From the NCBI GenBank assembly GCA_038227875.1, contig JBBRPR010000011.1:64001-128000 (forward strand): DNA of 64,000 nucleotides. The letters run 5' to 3'. The notes under the pieces are model-generated. The model was not told the DNA's origin. It was given only the letters and a program-made list of their open reading frames with translations, and searched no databases. Origin of the DNA: Planctomycetota bacterium. GTDB lineage: Bacteria; Planctomycetota; SZUA-567; H5-PLA8. A program made the translations under genes and the position numbers. Positions 152 through 9,000 of this stretch are shown in pieces. The number at the start of each line of letters is the position of its first letter. Position 1 is the stretch's first letter.

Positions 152-541
152 TCAGACCACTTCGGCGGCCAGTGAGACAATCTTCATGAAACCCTTCGAG
201 CGCAGTTCGCGAGCCACCGGTCCGAAGATGCGCGTGCCGCGCGGTTCTTTTTCCGGCGTGATCAACACGATCGCGTTGTTGTCGAAGCGCACCGACGATC
301 CGTCAGCCCGCTTGACCGCCTTGCGCGTGCGCACCACGACTCCGCGCACAACCAGCTTCTTCTTGTCCTTCTTGCTGGTGGTCATGAACTCGCTGCCCGG
401 CTGCACCTTCTTGACGGCCGCGACAATGATGTCACCGACCGAGGCGTAGCGACGGTGCGTCCCACCCAGCACCTTGATGCACATCGCGGTTCGAGCGCCG
501 GTGTTGTCGGCGACTACCAGCATGGTGTGATGTTGAATCAT
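152..541 (-). CDS. rplN: 50S ribosomal protein L14
   Basis: [34 protein letters not shown] motifs. Confidence 0.99.
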
Positions 542-612
542 CTCTCGTTATCCGTCCCTTCAGCGACTGCTACCGTTATCCAGATCAAGAAAATTAGTTC
601 GCAAACAGCTCT

Positions 613-1020
613 TTAGGCCTTGGCTTCCGGCGTGGTGCTTTCCGGAGCGGCCGGCGCGGCGGCGGAAACCTGCTTCTTCTGCGCCACGTCCACTTCCTTG
701 ATGTCCAGCGTGCCGAACACGGCGGCGCGTTCCACCACCTTCACCAACCGCCAGCGCTTCTGCTTGGAGATCGGGCGGGTTTCGACCAGCGATACGCGGT
801 CGCCCTTCTTGGCTTCGTTCTTTTCGTCATGGGCATGCAGGTGCGTGGAGCGGAAAATGTACTTTCCGTAGCGCGCGTGCTTCACCAGGCGCTTGATTTC
901 GACAGTGATCGTCTTCTGACGCACGTCGCTCAAGACAATTCCCTCGACGACACGGCGGTCGCCTCGTCCGGTTTCGGATTCCGTCTTTGCCGTGCCTGCC
1001 GCCGCTGTCTCACTGGCCAT
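613..1020 (-). CDS. rpsQ: 30S ribosomal protein S17 with N- and C-terminal extensions
   Basis: HAHDEKNEAKKGDRVSLVETRPISKQKRWRL; operon position. Confidence 0.98.
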   Translation of the reverse strand: MASETAAAGTAKTESETGRGDRRVVEGIVLSDVRQKTITVEIKRLVKHARYGKYIFRSTHLHAHDEKNEAKKGDRVSLVETRPISKQKRWRLVKVVERAAVFGTLDIKEVDVAQKKQVSAAAPAAPESTTPEAKA

Positions 1021-1111: not shown

Positions 1112-1588
1112 TTAGCGCGACTGGCCGACGTCCTGGCGATCAAGGCACGCGCGGCGGCGCTTGGCTTCCGCCAGGCGAATCGCGTTGCGGTCGGGAGCGG
1201 TGGCTTCACCGCGGATGCGGATCTTGGCGCGCTTGAGCATCGGCTTGACCTTGCGGCTGCCGACCGGCTTTTCCAGCTGAGCCTTGATCTCGGCGGCGCG
1301 GGTGTCGACCAGCTTCACCAATTTGGCGAATTCCGGCTTGGCGCCTTCGGCCTTCGGCGTCAGTGCGGCGACCTTCGCGTCCAGAATCGTGCGCAGCGAC
1401 CGTTCGCGCAGAATCGACTGGATGCGCGCGATCAGGCGTTTGCCGGCGCGCTTTTCGTGCGCCTTGATGGCTTCGCCCGATGCGCCCTTGACCACGCCGT
1501 CGAACAGGCGCTTCTTTTCCAGCATCATCTGGTCCTGCAGTTCCTGATTGGTCTTTTCGCGCAGCGTCTTTGCGTTAATCACGGCCAT
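1112..1588 (-). CDS. rpmC: 50S ribosomal protein L29 with long C-terminal extension (158 aa)
   Basis: N-terminal AKTLREKTNQEL...KRLIARIQSILRER matches L29; lies between rplP and rpsQ. Confidence 0.9.
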   Translation of the reverse strand: MAVINAKTLREKTNQELQDQMMLEKKRLFDGVVKGASGEAIKAHEKRAGKRLIARIQSILRERSLRTILDAKVAALTPKAEGAKPEFAKLVKLVDTRAAEIKAQLEKPVGSRKVKPMLKRAKIRIRGEATAPDRNAIRLAEAKRRRACLDRQDVGQSR

Positions 1589-1642
1589 GACTCTATCGTG
1601 CTCCTAGCTTCGTGCTCTTTTTTCTGTCGCACTGCTTTGTGT

Positions 1643-2062
1643 TTAGAATTCCTGGCGGCGCTTCAAAAAGCGCATGCGGAACGGCATCTTGCCCGACTGC
1701 AGGCGGAACGCTTCGCGCGCCGCGGCTTCCGGAACACCGGAGACTTCAAAGAGCACCATGCCGGGCTTGACGACGACGGCCCAGTACTCGATTTCGCCCT
1801 TGCCCTTACCCATGCGGGTTTCGGCGGCGATCGCGGTCACCGACTTGTGCGGGAACACCCGGCACCAGTAGCGGCCTTCCGTACCGATGAAGCGGGAAAG
1901 CACCACGCGCGCGGCTTCCAACTGCTGCGCACTCAGCCACCCCGGCTGCATCGCCTGGATTCCGTAGTCACCGAACGCCACATAGTTGCCGGCCGTCGCG
2001 TTACCGCGAATGCGTCCGCGCTGGCTCTTGCGGTGCTTGACTCGTTTGGGCATTAACGCCAT
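1643..2062 (-). CDS. rplP: 50S ribosomal protein L16
   Basis: LMPKRVKHRKSQRGR, ETRMGKGKG motifs. Confidence 0.99.
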   Translation of the reverse strand: MALMPKRVKHRKSQRGRIRGNATAGNYVAFGDYGIQAMQPGWLSAQQLEAARVVLSRFIGTEGRYWCRVFPHKSVTAIAAETRMGKGKGEIEYWAVVVKPGMVLFEVSGVPEAAAREAFRLQSGKMPFRMRFLKRRQEF

Positions 2063-3823: not shown

Positions 3824-4672
3824 CTACAGCGTCTGCTGCGCGGCGCCCTTGCGCCGGCGGATGATCTGGTTGTTCGTGCGGGCCTTCGGCTTGCGCGTCT
3901 TGCCGCCCTTCGCCAGCACGCCACTGGGCGACTGGGGAATGTGGCCTTTTCGGCGCGCAGCACCACCGCCCATCGGATGGTCGACCGGATTCTTCGCCAT
4001 ACCGCGGGTCGTCGGGCGGCGTCCAAACATGTGCCGGTTTCGGCCTGCTTTTCCGACCGTCACGTTCTGATGATCCAGATTACCGATCTGGCCCACCGTC
4101 GCGCGGCAGTCTTCCGGAACGAAACGCATTTCACCGGAGGGCAGCACGATCGTGACCTTGCCGCCTTCCTTGGCCATCAGGCGCGCCACACCACCAGCGG
4201 CGCGGACCATCTTGCCGCCCGAGCCCGGCTGGAGTTCGACGCAGTGAATGTCCGTCGACAGCGGCATGTTCTTCAACGGCATCGCGTTGCCAACGTCAGG
4301 CTCCACGCGGTCACCGGAGATCACGGTCTGTCCGACCTTGAGGTGCAGCGGCGCGATAATGTAGCGCTTTTCGCCGTCCTTGTAGTGCAGCAGAGCGATG
4401 AAAGCGGAGCGGATCGGATCGTACTCGATGCCCGCAACCTTCGCCGGAATGTTGTCCTTGTCGCGGCGGTAGTCGATCTTGCGGTACTGCTTCGCGTACG
4501 TGCTCTGCATCGCGCGGTTGGTGATGCGGCCGTGAGCGTTGCGGCCACCGGAGCGCGGAATGCGTTCGAGCAGCGACTTTTCCGGCTCGTGCTTGGTCAG
4601 TTCCTTGCGGAAATCGATGACCGACGCGCCGCGCGTACCTGCCGTGATGGGTCTGTAAAATCGCAATGCCAT
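3824..4672 (-). CDS. rplB: 50S ribosomal protein L2
   Basis: IEYDPIRSAFIALL, KNPVDHPMGGG motifs. Confidence 0.99.
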   Translation of the reverse strand: MALRFYRPITAGTRGASVIDFRKELTKHEPEKSLLERIPRSGGRNAHGRITNRAMQSTYAKQYRKIDYRRDKDNIPAKVAGIEYDPIRSAFIALLHYKDGEKRYIIAPLHLKVGQTVISGDRVEPDVGNAMPLKNMPLSTDIHCVELQPGSGGKMVRAAGGVARLMAKEGGKVTIVLPSGEMRFVPEDCRATVGQIGNLDHQNVTVGKAGRNRHMFGRRPTTRGMAKNPVDHPMGGGAARRKGHIPQSPSGVLAKGGKTRKPKARTNNQIIRRRKGAAQQTL

Positions 4673-4739
4673 GACTGATTCCTAATCCAGAAAGTCGACT
4701 GTCGATCTCTTACCGCACTGCCTGCCACTGCCTTGCTTA

Positions 4740-5360
4740 CTACTCTTCACTTCCCCGGCTGAACCATTTTCGCCGGTCCCAGGGCCACAGTCTCAGGCGA
4801 ACGATGCCTTTGATCTGGTTGCCGGGTACCATCCCCAGCGTATCCCCGCCCAGCGACACGCGGCTGTCCTTGCTCTGGCCGCGGTTGTCTCCCATCACGA
4901 AGTAGTACCCAGGGGGCACCACGAACGCCTGTCCTTCACTGAAACCCGGGAGCGTGTCAGCTCGAGTCGGGTCGAAGGATTCTTCAATCTTGGTGCCGTT
5001 TACCCATACGTAGCCGCCGTGCACTGCCACTGTGTCGCCGGAAAGTCCGATTACGCGTTTGATGTAGTCTCGCGTCATCCGGGGCGATTTGTCGTGGTCG
5101 ATCGCTTCGAAGACAATCACATCGAACTGGCTGACCTTGCTGAAACGGTAGGTCAATTTGTCGATCACCAGCCGGTCACCGTGGTGGAACGTCGGGTACA
5201 TCGACGGCCCGTCCACAACTGAAACCTGGAAAATGAACAGGTAGATCAGCAGCGCCCAGATGGCGGCGCGGATCAGCAGTCCCACCCACTCCTTCAACAA
5301 GGATTCATCGTCTTCGTCGCGCGCGATGTTCTTCGGCGCTTGCTTCACTTCCTCCGTCAT
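4740..5360 (-). CDS. lepB: Signal peptidase I (S26)
   Basis: Single N-terminal TM, GPSMYPT (catalytic Ser), DYIKRVIGLSGD (catalytic Lys), YFVMGDNRGQSKDSR. Confidence 0.97.
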   Translation of the reverse strand: MTEEVKQAPKNIARDEDDESLLKEWVGLLIRAAIWALLIYLFIFQVSVVDGPSMYPTFHHGDRLVIDKLTYRFSKVSQFDVIVFEAIDHDKSPRMTRDYIKRVIGLSGDTVAVHGGYVWVNGTKIEESFDPTRADTLPGFSEGQAFVVPPGYYFVMGDNRGQSKDSRVSLGGDTLGMVPGNQIKGIVRLRLWPWDRRKWFSRGSEE

Positions 5361-5385: not shown

Positions 5386-5724
5386 TTAGATCAACTCGAT
5401 TTGCTTCGAATCCTTGGTCAAGCGGATGATCGCCTTTTTGCGAATGCGGGAGAAACCGGACTTGCCCGCCTTCATGCCGCGAAACGCCTTCTTGCGAGGC
5501 TTGACGATCATCGTGTTCAGCGACTGAACCTGCACGCCGAACGCGGCTTCGATCGCCAGCTTGATCTGCTGCTTGTTGGCCTTGACGTGGACTTCGAACG
5601 TGTAGCGGCCCTTCTTGTCTTCGGCACCAGCAGAAACCATGTCGTGACTCTTTTCAGTCAGGACCGGCCGGCGCAGAATGGCGTACGGGTCGGACAACAG
5701 TTTTGCGGCGCGATTGCGGCTCAT
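5386..5724 (-). CDS. rplW: 50S ribosomal protein L23
   Basis: ILRRPVLTEKS, YTFEVHVKANKQQIKLAIE, KKAIIRL. Confidence 0.98.
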   Translation of the reverse strand: MSRNRAAKLLSDPYAILRRPVLTEKSHDMVSAGAEDKKGRYTFEVHVKANKQQIKLAIEAAFGVQVQSLNTMIVKPRKKAFRGMKAGKSGFSRIRKKAIIRLTKDSKQIELI

Positions 5725-6686: not shown

Positions 6687-8798
6687 TCAGCGCGTCACCG
6701 CCCAATTCACCCACATCTGTTGCAGGCGCTTCACATCCATATTGTAGACTTTCTCGAACGCTTTCTCGCTGTCCATGCCGTCCTTGAGCGCCAGGCAGTA
6801 TTTCGGAAAAAGTTTTGCGTCGGTATTCATCATGAACGACACCATTGAATAGCACGTCAAATAATCCAGCGAGCTCATTCCGATCGGCTGAATCAGAAAC
6901 GCCTGGTCCCACGTTTTCAATTTTCCCTGCGACGCGTACTTTTTAATTTCGTTGTCCCAGTTGTCGCTGAAGCGCACTTCATTTTTCTCGTACTGAAATG
7001 CATAGACCAGATTTTTATGCGTAATCACGTTTTCGCAGTACGACGCGAAACCATAACGCAACCACGTTGGCGCTTTGTTGTCCGTCGCCTGCACTATTTC
7101 CATTTCGCCGAATTGGTAGAGCGCCATGTGTTTGGGATGCGCCATCGCGCCGCGATTGGCATTGAAGACGCCGCGGTGCGGGAGCAGGAATCCGCCGGAA
7201 TTCTGCGCCATCGCCCAGTTCTGCGTCGGTTCCTGCGCCATCAGCGCGTTGACGAACGCCAGGTACCCCTGCGCGTCCCACGCGATCATCAATTCGTCGG
7301 TGTCGGGCCGCGTCTGTGTGAGCACGACAGTCTGCGTCAGTTGTTCGAGCTGCCCGGTGAGCTGCTCCAGCGCGGTGGCGACGCCGCGCACTTCCGGCTC
7401 GGGCATCGTCGAACGGATCGTGACGTGATGCGTCTCGACAGTGCTGAGCTTCGCGCGCGTGAGCTGCTCCCAGTGTTCGTTGATCGCCTGGACACCCGAC
7501 AGGCGCGTCTGTTCGGCAGCAACCAGTGGAGCCGCGTCTTTTCCAGCCTGACATTTAGGGCACCAGCGCCACGGCACCGCCGCGGCGTACGCGGTGGCAT
7601 TAAGCGGCTCGTTGGAAAAGCGGATGTACGTCTTCGCCGGAATGATCGGCACGTAGGTCATGCCCAGACATTGCGGACAGACCGCCGGCGCCGCTGCTAT
7701 GTTCGGCGCGGGAGCGGGCGTAAACGGTTTGGGCGGCGTGGCCGCGATGGTATTTTTCGGCGACGCAACGGGCGGCTTTTTGGATGTGTCGGGTTTCGGA
7801 TCGTCGTCGGGCGGTGGCGTTTTCTTCGCCAGCTCTTTCATTACCTCGCTGGACGGGTTGGACGGATCGTTGTTCGGAGTGGACTTCGGCGGCACGTTGG
7901 TCGCGTTTTCATTTTCGTCCTCGCGTCCGGTCTTCCGTTCTTTGGTGCTCAGGATATCCGCGACAGTTTCGGGAGGTTTCGGAGCCGGCGGCGCTTCCGG
8001 GCGCGCTCCGATTTCCATGCCGTCGTTGTCGCTCGTTTTTTCATCCAGCTTTTTCGTTACGGAGTCGCTCGGCGGTTTGGCGGTCGCGACCGTCGAAGTG
8101 CCCGTCGACAGCGCAGTGGCGGTAGCGGTGCTCGCGGGAGTTTTCGGATCTAGCGGACCGCTTGCATGCTCGGTCCCGCTCGTCGGAACCTTGCGTGGCC
8201 AGTAAACAGCCGCGGTAATGATCAGGCCAATCGCCGCAACGCCGGCCAGCGCGCCGAGCACCGGGAGGCCAGCGCTCTCGGTTTTGCGCTTCGCCGGTTT
8301 GTGCGCGTGCGTGGGATGAGCGTGCGCATGCGTCTCCACTTTGCGCGCGCCAGGTTTTTCTTTATCGCCCGGCACCGAAGCCACGATGAATGAATCGCCG
8401 TCGCTCTGATCTGGCACCATCACTTTGGCTTTGCACGACGGACACGGTTGCGCCGTGCCCGCAAACTTCGCTTCGAAGCCCGTCATCTTCGCGCAACTGG
8501 GACAGGCAAACTTGATGTACTTTCCGGCAGTCGCTGTTGCACTCGGCGCGGGTGCCGCAACGGGTGGAACCGGCACGTTAGCCGCTGCGCTGGCCTCAAC
8601 GGGCTTCGGCGGTTCCACGGCTTCGAGTTTCGGTTCGCCTTCAGCCGGGGTCGAAGCAGCGGCTGTTTCCGGCGTCTTTTCTACGCCGGGAATGCGGATG
8701 GTCTGCTTGCAGCCCGGGCAACTCGCTTTCTTGCCGGCGTGGATCTCCGGCACACGCACCGCGGCTTTGCATTCAGGGCATTGAAAATCGATGGCCAT
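6687..8798 (-). CDS. Membrane-anchored multi-zinc-ribbon protein with degenerate peptidase MA/DUF1570-like C-terminal domain
   Basis: CPEC..CPGC and CPSC..CPSC ribbons, TM helix, Pro-rich linker, CPQC..CPKC, then PTWLRYGFASYCE; start at MAIDFQC after GGAG. Confidence 0.7.
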   Translation of the reverse strand: MAIDFQCPECKAAVRVPEIHAGKKASCPGCKQTIRIPGVEKTPETAAASTPAEGEPKLEAVEPPKPVEASAAANVPVPPVAAPAPSATATAGKYIKFACPSCAKMTGFEAKFAGTAQPCPSCKAKVMVPDQSDGDSFIVASVPGDKEKPGARKVETHAHAHPTHAHKPAKRKTESAGLPVLGALAGVAAIGLIITAAVYWPRKVPTSGTEHASGPLDPKTPASTATATALSTGTSTVATAKPPSDSVTKKLDEKTSDNDGMEIGARPEAPPAPKPPETVADILSTKERKTGREDENENATNVPPKSTPNNDPSNPSSEVMKELAKKTPPPDDDPKPDTSKKPPVASPKNTIAATPPKPFTPAPAPNIAAAPAVCPQCLGMTYVPIIPAKTYIRFSNEPLNATAYAAAVPWRWCPKCQAGKDAAPLVAAEQTRLSGVQAINEHWEQLTRAKLSTVETHHVTIRSTMPEPEVRGVATALEQLTGQLEQLTQTVVLTQTRPDTDELMIAWDAQGYLAFVNALMAQEPTQNWAMAQNSGGFLLPHRGVFNANRGAMAHPKHMALYQFGEMEIVQATDNKAPTWLRYGFASYCENVITHKNLVYAFQYEKNEVRFSDNWDNEIKKYASQGKLKTWDQAFLIQPIGMSSLDYLTCYSMVSFMMNTDAKLFPKYCLALKDGMDSEKAFEKVYNMDVKRLQQMWVNWAVTR

Positions 8799-9000
8799 CT
8801 GCACTCCGCTTCGCCGGGCTACGTTCGTCCAAATTCCATCCCGGTAGCATAAAGCACCCGGGCTCCGGCACAACTATGACGGGAACGTAACTGGGTTGCT
8901 GCCAGATTTGTACTATATATGGTATGCGTTCTTCGAAGTACCACCGGGCCAATTGGCACACAGGTCAGTCGCCCTAAAGAGGGGAGTGCAACGCTTCGAC

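Follow-up and report, generated by a model that had tools for sequence, protein, structure and literature searches.

The L29 protein (uL29) encoded by rpmC in this planctomycetal ribosomal-protein cluster owes its length, about 2.5 times the usual, to a conserved C-terminal tail that was added in one small group of Planctomycetota. At 158 aa, with an expected mass of about 17.7 kDa, it lies outside the usual bacterial range of about 60 to 80 aa. The preliminary description of the window (the whole stretch of DNA analyzed here, 64,000 nt long) had proposed both the 2.5-fold length and a run of about 95 aa without a stop beyond ILRER. Our analysis agrees on each count, with the L29 models ending at residue 63 of the 158-aa ORF and residues 64-158 (window 1115..1399) following without a stop.

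The position of rpmC is canonical, within the S10 cluster and flanked by rplP (L16) and rpsQ (S17), with a spacer of 91 nt between the rpmC stop and the S17 start at 1020 (Table 1). The match to Pfam Ribosomal_L29 (PF00831) is limited to residues 7-63 at 35 bits (cut-off 24.5), and that to TIGR00012 covers residues 9-63 at 28 bits (cut-off 22.6). The core is itself divergent, given that it scores 35 bits with PF00831 compared to 60-84 bits in other Planctomycetota (150 matches listed, 301-genome sample). The source genome, G000, is a 9.3-Mb assembly of 176 contigs with an estimated completeness of 88%; PF00831 matches it once, which makes the 158-aa protein the sole L29 detected there. The 63-aa uL29 of Escherichia coli occupies the same slot between rplP and rpsQ, has the same fold and matches the same family HMM, but lacks residues 64-158.

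Table 1. Features of rpmC and its immediate neighbors in the window; residue numbers refer to the 158-aa protein
Feature	Window positions	Strand	Description
rpmC ORF	1112..1588	-	158 aa, ATG start
uL29 core	1400..1588	-	residues 1-63; helix 1 at 6-9, helix 2 at 14-36, helix 3 starting at 43
Helix 3 continuation past the normal L29 end	1352..1399	-	residues 64-79
Helix 4, amphipathic	1274..1336	-	residues 85-105
Arg/Lys-rich linker	1199..1273	-	residues 106-130, net charge +7
Conserved C-terminal helix plus cap	1115..1198	-	residues 131-158
rpmC stop codon	1112..1114	-	
AGGAG Shine-Dalgarno-like sequence	1601..1605	-	12 nt upstream of the rpmC ATG; read off the sequence
L16 (rplP)	1643..2062	-	Pfam-confirmed
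S17 (rpsQ)	613..1020	-	Pfam-confirmed

The tail is a property of the family to which the source genome belongs (f1). It is present, in frame and free of stops, in all 16 other f1 genomes, which are species representatives from 9 further genera. It is thus conserved in related genomes, and all 16 relatives read on past ILRER, where the preliminary description had allowed that they might stop. In 13 of these genomes the match is single (from residue 5 or earlier to residue 156 or later), and in the other 3, which lack helix 4, it is split in two. Among 5.8 billion proteins searched, 78 homologues were found; the 57 listed first are 156-181 aa long with at least 98% query coverage; a further group of 138-142 aa was matched at 100% coverage. 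Dozens of metagenome proteins are among the tail-bearing homologues, and the few that carry a name are 50S ribosomal protein L29 of Planctomycetota. The two genomes of the sister family (f3) encode an L29 of 114-116 aa whose tail, of 54-56 aa, has neither helix 4 nor the basic linker and ends in the same terminal motif. When f1 and f3 were aligned jointly, L69, A136, E141, R144, R151, D153 and G155 were invariant.

A profile built from the tail matched 19 of the 20 genomes of the order, the sole miss being the single genome of the third family (f2); 15 of the 19 had contributed to the profile and match by construction, and the four independent ones (G006, G007, G010 and G016) all match. Across the class, 18 of 58 genomes matched the profile, with no match in any of the 40 that belong to neither f1 nor f3 (f2 0/1, f4 0/30, f5 0/4, f6 0/1, f7 0/4). 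A search of the 301-genome phylum sample with the single tail sequence recovered G000 and seven other f1 genomes, together with three matches of E 0.0025-0.005 at loci other than L29. Two of those three fall within stop-to-stop frames some 900 aa long, and all three are regarded as chance.

Elsewhere in the phylum, L29 was read at 26 loci of other Planctomycetota families, and the tail measured 4-24 aa at 24 of them. Long stop-to-stop frames around L29 were rejected as candidates for further long tails, since they reflect upstream read-through. Of 20 such loci inspected, 18 had an L29 match, 16 of these with tails of 4-24 aa and two, both in family f88, with tails of 58-76 aa. The f88 tails (G302 and G246) are of Ala/Pro/Lys low complexity, resemble histone H1 and are unrelated to that of f1. 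The f2 genome (G017, unpublished; C330:35000-37000, minus strand, 427..987) encodes an L29 core followed by a different, Ala-rich tail of roughly 187 aa, in which we noted sub-threshold UBA-like matches (UBA_4, E 0.0012; TAP_C, E 0.0021; CUE, E 0.0045). Exit-site factors, NAC for example, are among the proteins with UBA domains.

The conservation of the tail is uneven along its length. We used two alignments, A1 with 30 sequences and A2 with 15 rows, two of which come from the sister family. Mean column identity across A1 is 58%, and mean pairwise identity by region is 72% in the core (residues 1-63), 48% in residues 64-79, 44% in residues 85-105, 36% in residues 106-130 and 61% in residues 131-158. 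The C-terminal helix with its cap is thus the best-conserved element of the tail (61% versus 36-48% elsewhere in it). The tail residues invariant in A1 are R66, L76, L139, A140, E141, R144 and D153, and L69, A83, R112, P116, R120, A132, R134, A136, A142 and G155 are nearly so. The C-terminal helix follows the motif A..[LI].E.[KR]R......R.D.G, and A136, L139, A140, E141, R144, R151, D153 and G155 are the conserved positions of helix plus cap. The linker has the consensus RKxKPxLxRxR, built on the near-invariant R112, P116 and R120, and varies in length within A1, with insertions of up to about 20 residues. Helix 4 is dispensable, given that 8 of the 30 rows of A1 have a gap in its place (and a ninth nearly so), as do 6 of the 15 rows of A2, including both sister-family rows. 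Within f1, the 138-142-aa forms of L29 are the ones without helix 4. Since parts of the clade can do without helix 4 or vary in the linker, the pattern of conservation indicates that the constrained part of the tail is only the hairpin formed by the helix-3 extension and the last helix (helix 5).

The preliminary description had also called the extension a basic helical C-terminal domain of about 95 aa, and this was confirmed as far as composition and structure prediction can speak to it. Residues 64-158 (95 aa) have a pI of 10.98 and a net charge of +14, and AlphaFold2 run on A1 placed helices at 14-36, 43-79, 85-105, 131-148 and 154-157 of the full-length protein (mean pLDDT 85.9, pTM 0.74). 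Helix 43-79 is predicted as one continuous helix (pLDDT 93-94), and the C-terminal helix 131-148 is also predicted with high confidence (pLDDT 90-91). The linker is predicted to have no regular secondary structure, yet its pLDDT is 71-85. When the tail was modeled alone on A2, it again gave three helices (pLDDT 85.1, pTM 0.75), with helix 4 at 22-42 of the tail numbering. It is therefore predicted to be a small autonomous bundle and not a disordered extension, although AlphaFold2 confidence from such shallow alignments (15-30 close sequences) can overstate order. In these models, the tail is predicted to be an ordered three-helix bundle made of the helix-3 extension, a helix 4 that folds back and an Ala-rich C-terminal helix, finished by an R-x-D-x-G cap.

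We propose that this tail is probably, in the main, an extra anchor or stabilizer for uL29 and for domain I of the 23S rRNA, both during assembly and in the mature subunit, a reading that draws on analogy with other ribosomes. Helix 3 of L29 would run on for some 16 residues and so join the tail rigidly to the core; helix 4 would then fold back, and the basic linker would lead to the C-terminal helix that closes the small bundle. The C-terminus of uL29 would be expected to emerge on the solvent side of the 50S subunit, at the rim of the tunnel exit, next to the N-terminus of uL23 and to H9 in 23S domain I. Given that it is located there in solved ribosomes, the bundle may stand out next to uL23 and H9 as a rigid knob of protein. 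The Arg/Lys linker would be laid on rRNA, and the last helix would lock the bundle. By this analogy we infer both the position of the tail on the 50S subunit and its contact with rRNA. A larger uL23/uL29 docking surface for trigger factor, SRP and the translocon would arise as a by-product.

An alternative that we consider unlikely, though it keeps some force, is that the tail is no passive anchor and instead serves as a docking module for a co-translational partner, such as SRP, trigger factor, SecYEG/YidC or a membrane-bound processing enzyme, with the C-terminal helix and its invariant E141, R144, R151 and D153 as the interaction surface. The invariant acidic residues E141 and D153 fall in the most conserved element of the tail. 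They are unlike what a purely rRNA-binding tail would be expected to conserve and suggest protein-protein or intramolecular contacts. Because these residues argue for protein contacts, a factor-docking role stays alive. uL29 and uL23 together form a known docking site at the exit (PMC5071890), and the charged helix of plant chloroplast uL29c has been proposed to meet nascent chains or factors (bioRxiv 10.64898/2026.07.03.736309). In addition, uL23 of f1 has a conserved N-terminal extension of its own, and in the order with the long L29 tails a signal peptidase I gene sits between rplW and rplB, 3.3-3.9 kb from rpmC. However, no candidate partner was identified in our analysis, and the co-occurrence with signal peptidase concerns one clade and is at best one evolutionary event; G000 moreover encodes about five paralogues of S26, detected as seven pieces distributed over five loci. 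The L29 extension of Mycoplasma pneumoniae lies more than 30 Å from the exit and was judged unable to meet the nascent chain (PMC9534751). The more specific idea of the C-terminal helix as a landing pad dedicated, in this order, to linking the exit site with the machinery of secretion and processing is quite unlikely in our estimation. If it were true, the f2 tail with its UBA-like repeats would mark uL29 tails as a site where adaptors for co-translational factors can evolve.

We also considered that the tail might compensate for a lost 23S element, namely H9 of domain I, as has been proposed for spinach uL29c. Its extension is tied to the deletion of H9 in PMC5071890, and H9 is deleted in part of the class studied here. 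The pattern is nevertheless the reverse of the one expected, with H9 kept where the tail is present. The H9-H10 region is full length (65-66 nt, compared to 61 nt in E. coli) in all six f1 genomes in which the 5' end of the 23S gene is assembled. In f4 it is cut, yet L29 is short (a 9-aa tail at the one f4 locus read), and the tail profile finds nothing in the 30 f4 and 4 f7 genomes, the families with H9 cut. H9 is kept also in f5 and in E. coli, both of which have a short L29. We therefore rejected H9 replacement, which we hold to be very improbable. Apart from a 4-nt shortening of H7 and a 6-nt insertion near position 1867, no 23S indel of at least 4 nt whose size or position is private to f1 was found when the full-length genes of two f1 genomes were compared with those of E. 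coli and one f4 relative. Across the H9 region and these full-length genes, no family-specific rRNA feature that covaries with the tail was found. G000 itself has no assembled 23S gene.

Some features of the 23S rRNA in this class were noted in their own right. H9 (E. coli positions ~125-152) is deleted in 13 of 13 f4 genomes and in the one f7 genome available, in all of which H9-H10 spans 34-36 nt, and is kept in f1, f2, f3 and f5; the region measures 57 nt in f3, 64 nt in f5 and, in the unpublished f2 genome G017, 60 nt. The 23S gene of the f1 genome G014 (C1:1356789-1363442) is 3654 nt long and carries a 707-nt insertion at E. coli position ~1931, which we take to be a known site for group I introns or homing endonuclease insertions.

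With regard to origin, the preliminary description had offered a degenerate tandem duplication of L29 or a new domain. That the tail is a decayed second copy of L29 might be suggested by the helical and basic character that it shares with the core, and RLAEAKRRRA had been thought to resemble the L29 C-helix loosely. That echo, within RNAIRLAEAKRRRACLDR, is undetectable by profile-profile comparison. When aligned with the core profile in hhalign, the tail profile gave a probability of 0.35% (E 0.17) and the profile of the C-terminal motif 0.51% (E 0.12), compared to 100% for the positive control of core against core. The Pfam and TIGR models of L29 each recognized a single copy, without a match in the tail at E<=10, and no L29 was among the 50 matches listed in the fold search of the isolated tail. 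A tandem duplication is therefore unsupported, and we give it very little credence.

The other half of that proposal stood in part: the tail is conserved, is predicted to be ordered and matches no known family or fold, as a new domain would. No Pfam or NCBIfam model matches residues 64-158 even at E<=10, and a search of the PDB with the family profile returned L29 chains only. The AlphaFold2 core, with its two long antiparallel helices, superimposes on solved L29 structures, both in Foldseek (TM by target 0.78-0.86, rmsd 1.7-1.9 Å over 58-62 columns) and in VIA-align against 5o60_Z (Z 8.8, rmsd 1.9, 64 residues aligned). With the full model, both programs matched the core and returned no match to the tail, and Foldseek with the isolated tail model gave nothing at E<=0.001. 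As a known fold, the isolated tail was matched only to generic three-helix bundles (MIT, BAG, GAT and designed proteins) at Z<=6.0, below the noise level that the fold-search tool states for helical models, and these candidates were rejected. The ESM Atlas gave weak leads (scores up to 0.78) in clusters of long uL29 from Chloroflexota (139 aa) and Rifleibacteriota (210 aa) and in eukaryotic L35.

A search of 1.84 billion cluster representatives with the tail profile returned seven proteins. Six are long L29s in which the match starts at residue 64-67, and the seventh, of 65 aa, is a probable mis-started fragment of a long L29. No standalone homologue of the tail was found among these cluster representatives, nor was a longer fused homologue found in a search for longer proteins. 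The tail is not repeat-derived: its DNA has no full second copy elsewhere in the G000 genome, and TRF reported a 16-nt trace only. Most likely, the reading frame was extended within this order, and the tail is neither an L29 duplication nor a fusion with a pre-existing gene. That the long ORF is an artefact or recent accident (a lost stop, an error of assembly or a frameshift, or a mobile repeat inserted in frame) is scarcely credible even for a high-GC genome, which can yield long chance ORFs, and is refuted by the conservation of the tail, which recurs in frame in 16/16 other f1 genomes and dozens of metagenome proteins, with residues invariant across A1.

Structured C-terminal extensions of uL29 have already been described, in M. 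pneumoniae (PMC9534751) and in chloroplasts, and extensions of ribosomal proteins were reported to be common across bacteria (Xue et al. 2022, PMC9534751). The closest parallel is the 111-aa uL29 of M. pneumoniae (PDB 7OOD chain w), which is likewise a bacterial L29 with a structured, helical C-terminal extension and which gave the best PDB sequence match of the family profile (E 3.3e-10). Its ribosome has extensions on L22 and L23 too. According to the supplement of PMC9534751, the additional helix lies more than 30 Å from the exit and "mainly interacts with peripheral rRNA." The M. pneumoniae protein aligns with the profile up to position 110 of 158, but within the extension the resemblance is weak and could be a matter of composition, and the structural aligner matched the core only (5-64). 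Its extension is also shorter (about 48 residues versus 95) and is without the basic linker and the conserved LAEAKR...R.D.G C-terminal helix.

In chloroplasts, the extension of uL29c (spinach 5H1S, 5MLC and 6ERI; Sinapis) first prolongs helix 3, has a charged helix at its end and adjoins the N-terminal extension of a likewise extended uL23 at the rim of the tunnel exit. In spinach it is reported to occupy the place of H9 and to run parallel to the uL23c N-terminal extension (PMC5071890), and in plants to overhang the exit pore and form a pocket for a Phe of uL23c (bioRxiv 10.64898/2026.07.03.736309). The chloroplast chains align with the family profile up to position 80-107, and in the PDB profile search both chloroplast and eukaryotic uL29 chains aligned into the stretch of residues 64-79. 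Past the first 20 or so residues of the tail, uL29c and the f1 protein have no sequence relationship. The plant chloroplast helix is Glu-rich, whereas the f1 tail has a net charge of +14, and the chloroplast extension is linked to H9 loss, whereas H9 is retained in f1.

Eukaryotic uL29 (L35, about 123 aa) also has a long, helical and basic C-terminal extension after the same two-helix core. Its matches to the family profile are weak (positions 1-116, E 0.007-0.07), and the L35 look-alike for the tail in the ESM Atlas scores 0.77 and is a lead only. In VIA-align, the model could be superimposed as far as its residue 148 on plant and human uL29 as far as their residue 85 (Z 8.4-8.6, 82 aligned, rmsd 3.6-3.7), but these scores are no better than that of the core alone (Z 8.8), and there is no common conserved motif. 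The eukaryotic extension is almost certainly of independent origin.

The f1 tail is a further example of ribosomal proteins gaining lineage-specific extensions. A search of the full-text literature gave no description of a long planctomycetal L29, although Supplementary Table 2 of PMC9534751, which covers extensions across bacteria, could list cases; neither that literature nor the PDB sequence-search matches included a Planctomycetota ribosome structure. Four proteins, uL29 among them, encircle the exit of the nascent chain. Extensions of ribosomal proteins are common and are mostly disordered, low-complexity tails; that of f1 is a conserved and, judging from the models, apparently autonomously folding domain of about 10 kDa on a protein of the exit ring. 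If its position beside uL23 is correct, it would represent a third independent remodeling of the exit-site platform by uL29, after Mycoplasma and chloroplasts. The tail would also be a clean clade marker for f1, and it predicts extra density in future maps of Planctomycetota ribosomes.

Several other ribosomal proteins of this genome are long. In the window, S17 (613..1020) has 135 aa with its Pfam domain at 27-94, L22 (2886..3386) has about 166 aa if it starts at MSKIH (Pfam 39-143), and L23 (5386..5724) has 112 aa. In the adjoining segment G000:C11:56000-64600, L5 (6980..7681) has 233 aa with a Lys/Glu-rich N-terminus, S5 (4262..5002) has 246 aa with a Gly-rich C-terminus, and L15 (3542..4174) has 210 aa with an Ala/Pro/Lys C-terminus. 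Where they were inspected, the additions on the other long proteins are low-complexity tails, and the L29 tail stands out as ordered for that reason. The N-terminus of f1 uL23 is conserved as MSRNRAAKLL and is not alignable in f3, f4 and f5. There is no L30 gene between S5 and L15, and S14 is of the short, 61-aa type.

The cluster also contains genes other than those of ribosomal proteins. A signal peptidase I gene (Peptidase_S26, E 2.5e-41, 206 aa) lies at window 4740..5360 on the minus strand, between rplW (5386..5724) and rplB (3824..4672). Of the other 19 genomes in the order, 15 (the unpublished G017 among them) carry its orthologue on the rpmC contig, 3.3-3.9 kb away, and three have it on another short contig; it was not found in G019. 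In the other families of the class, only distant matches at unrelated loci were seen, and we found no literature report of a signal peptidase I gene within a ribosomal-protein cluster. The gene upstream of rplD (window 6687..8873, minus strand) encodes a 728-aa protein and is neither rplC nor rpsJ; S10 and L3 are therefore encoded elsewhere. This protein has N-terminal Cys-x2-Cys pairs, a predicted membrane segment and a Pro/Ala-rich middle, and its C-terminus gives a weak Peptidase_MA_2 match of 26 bits, below the cut-off.
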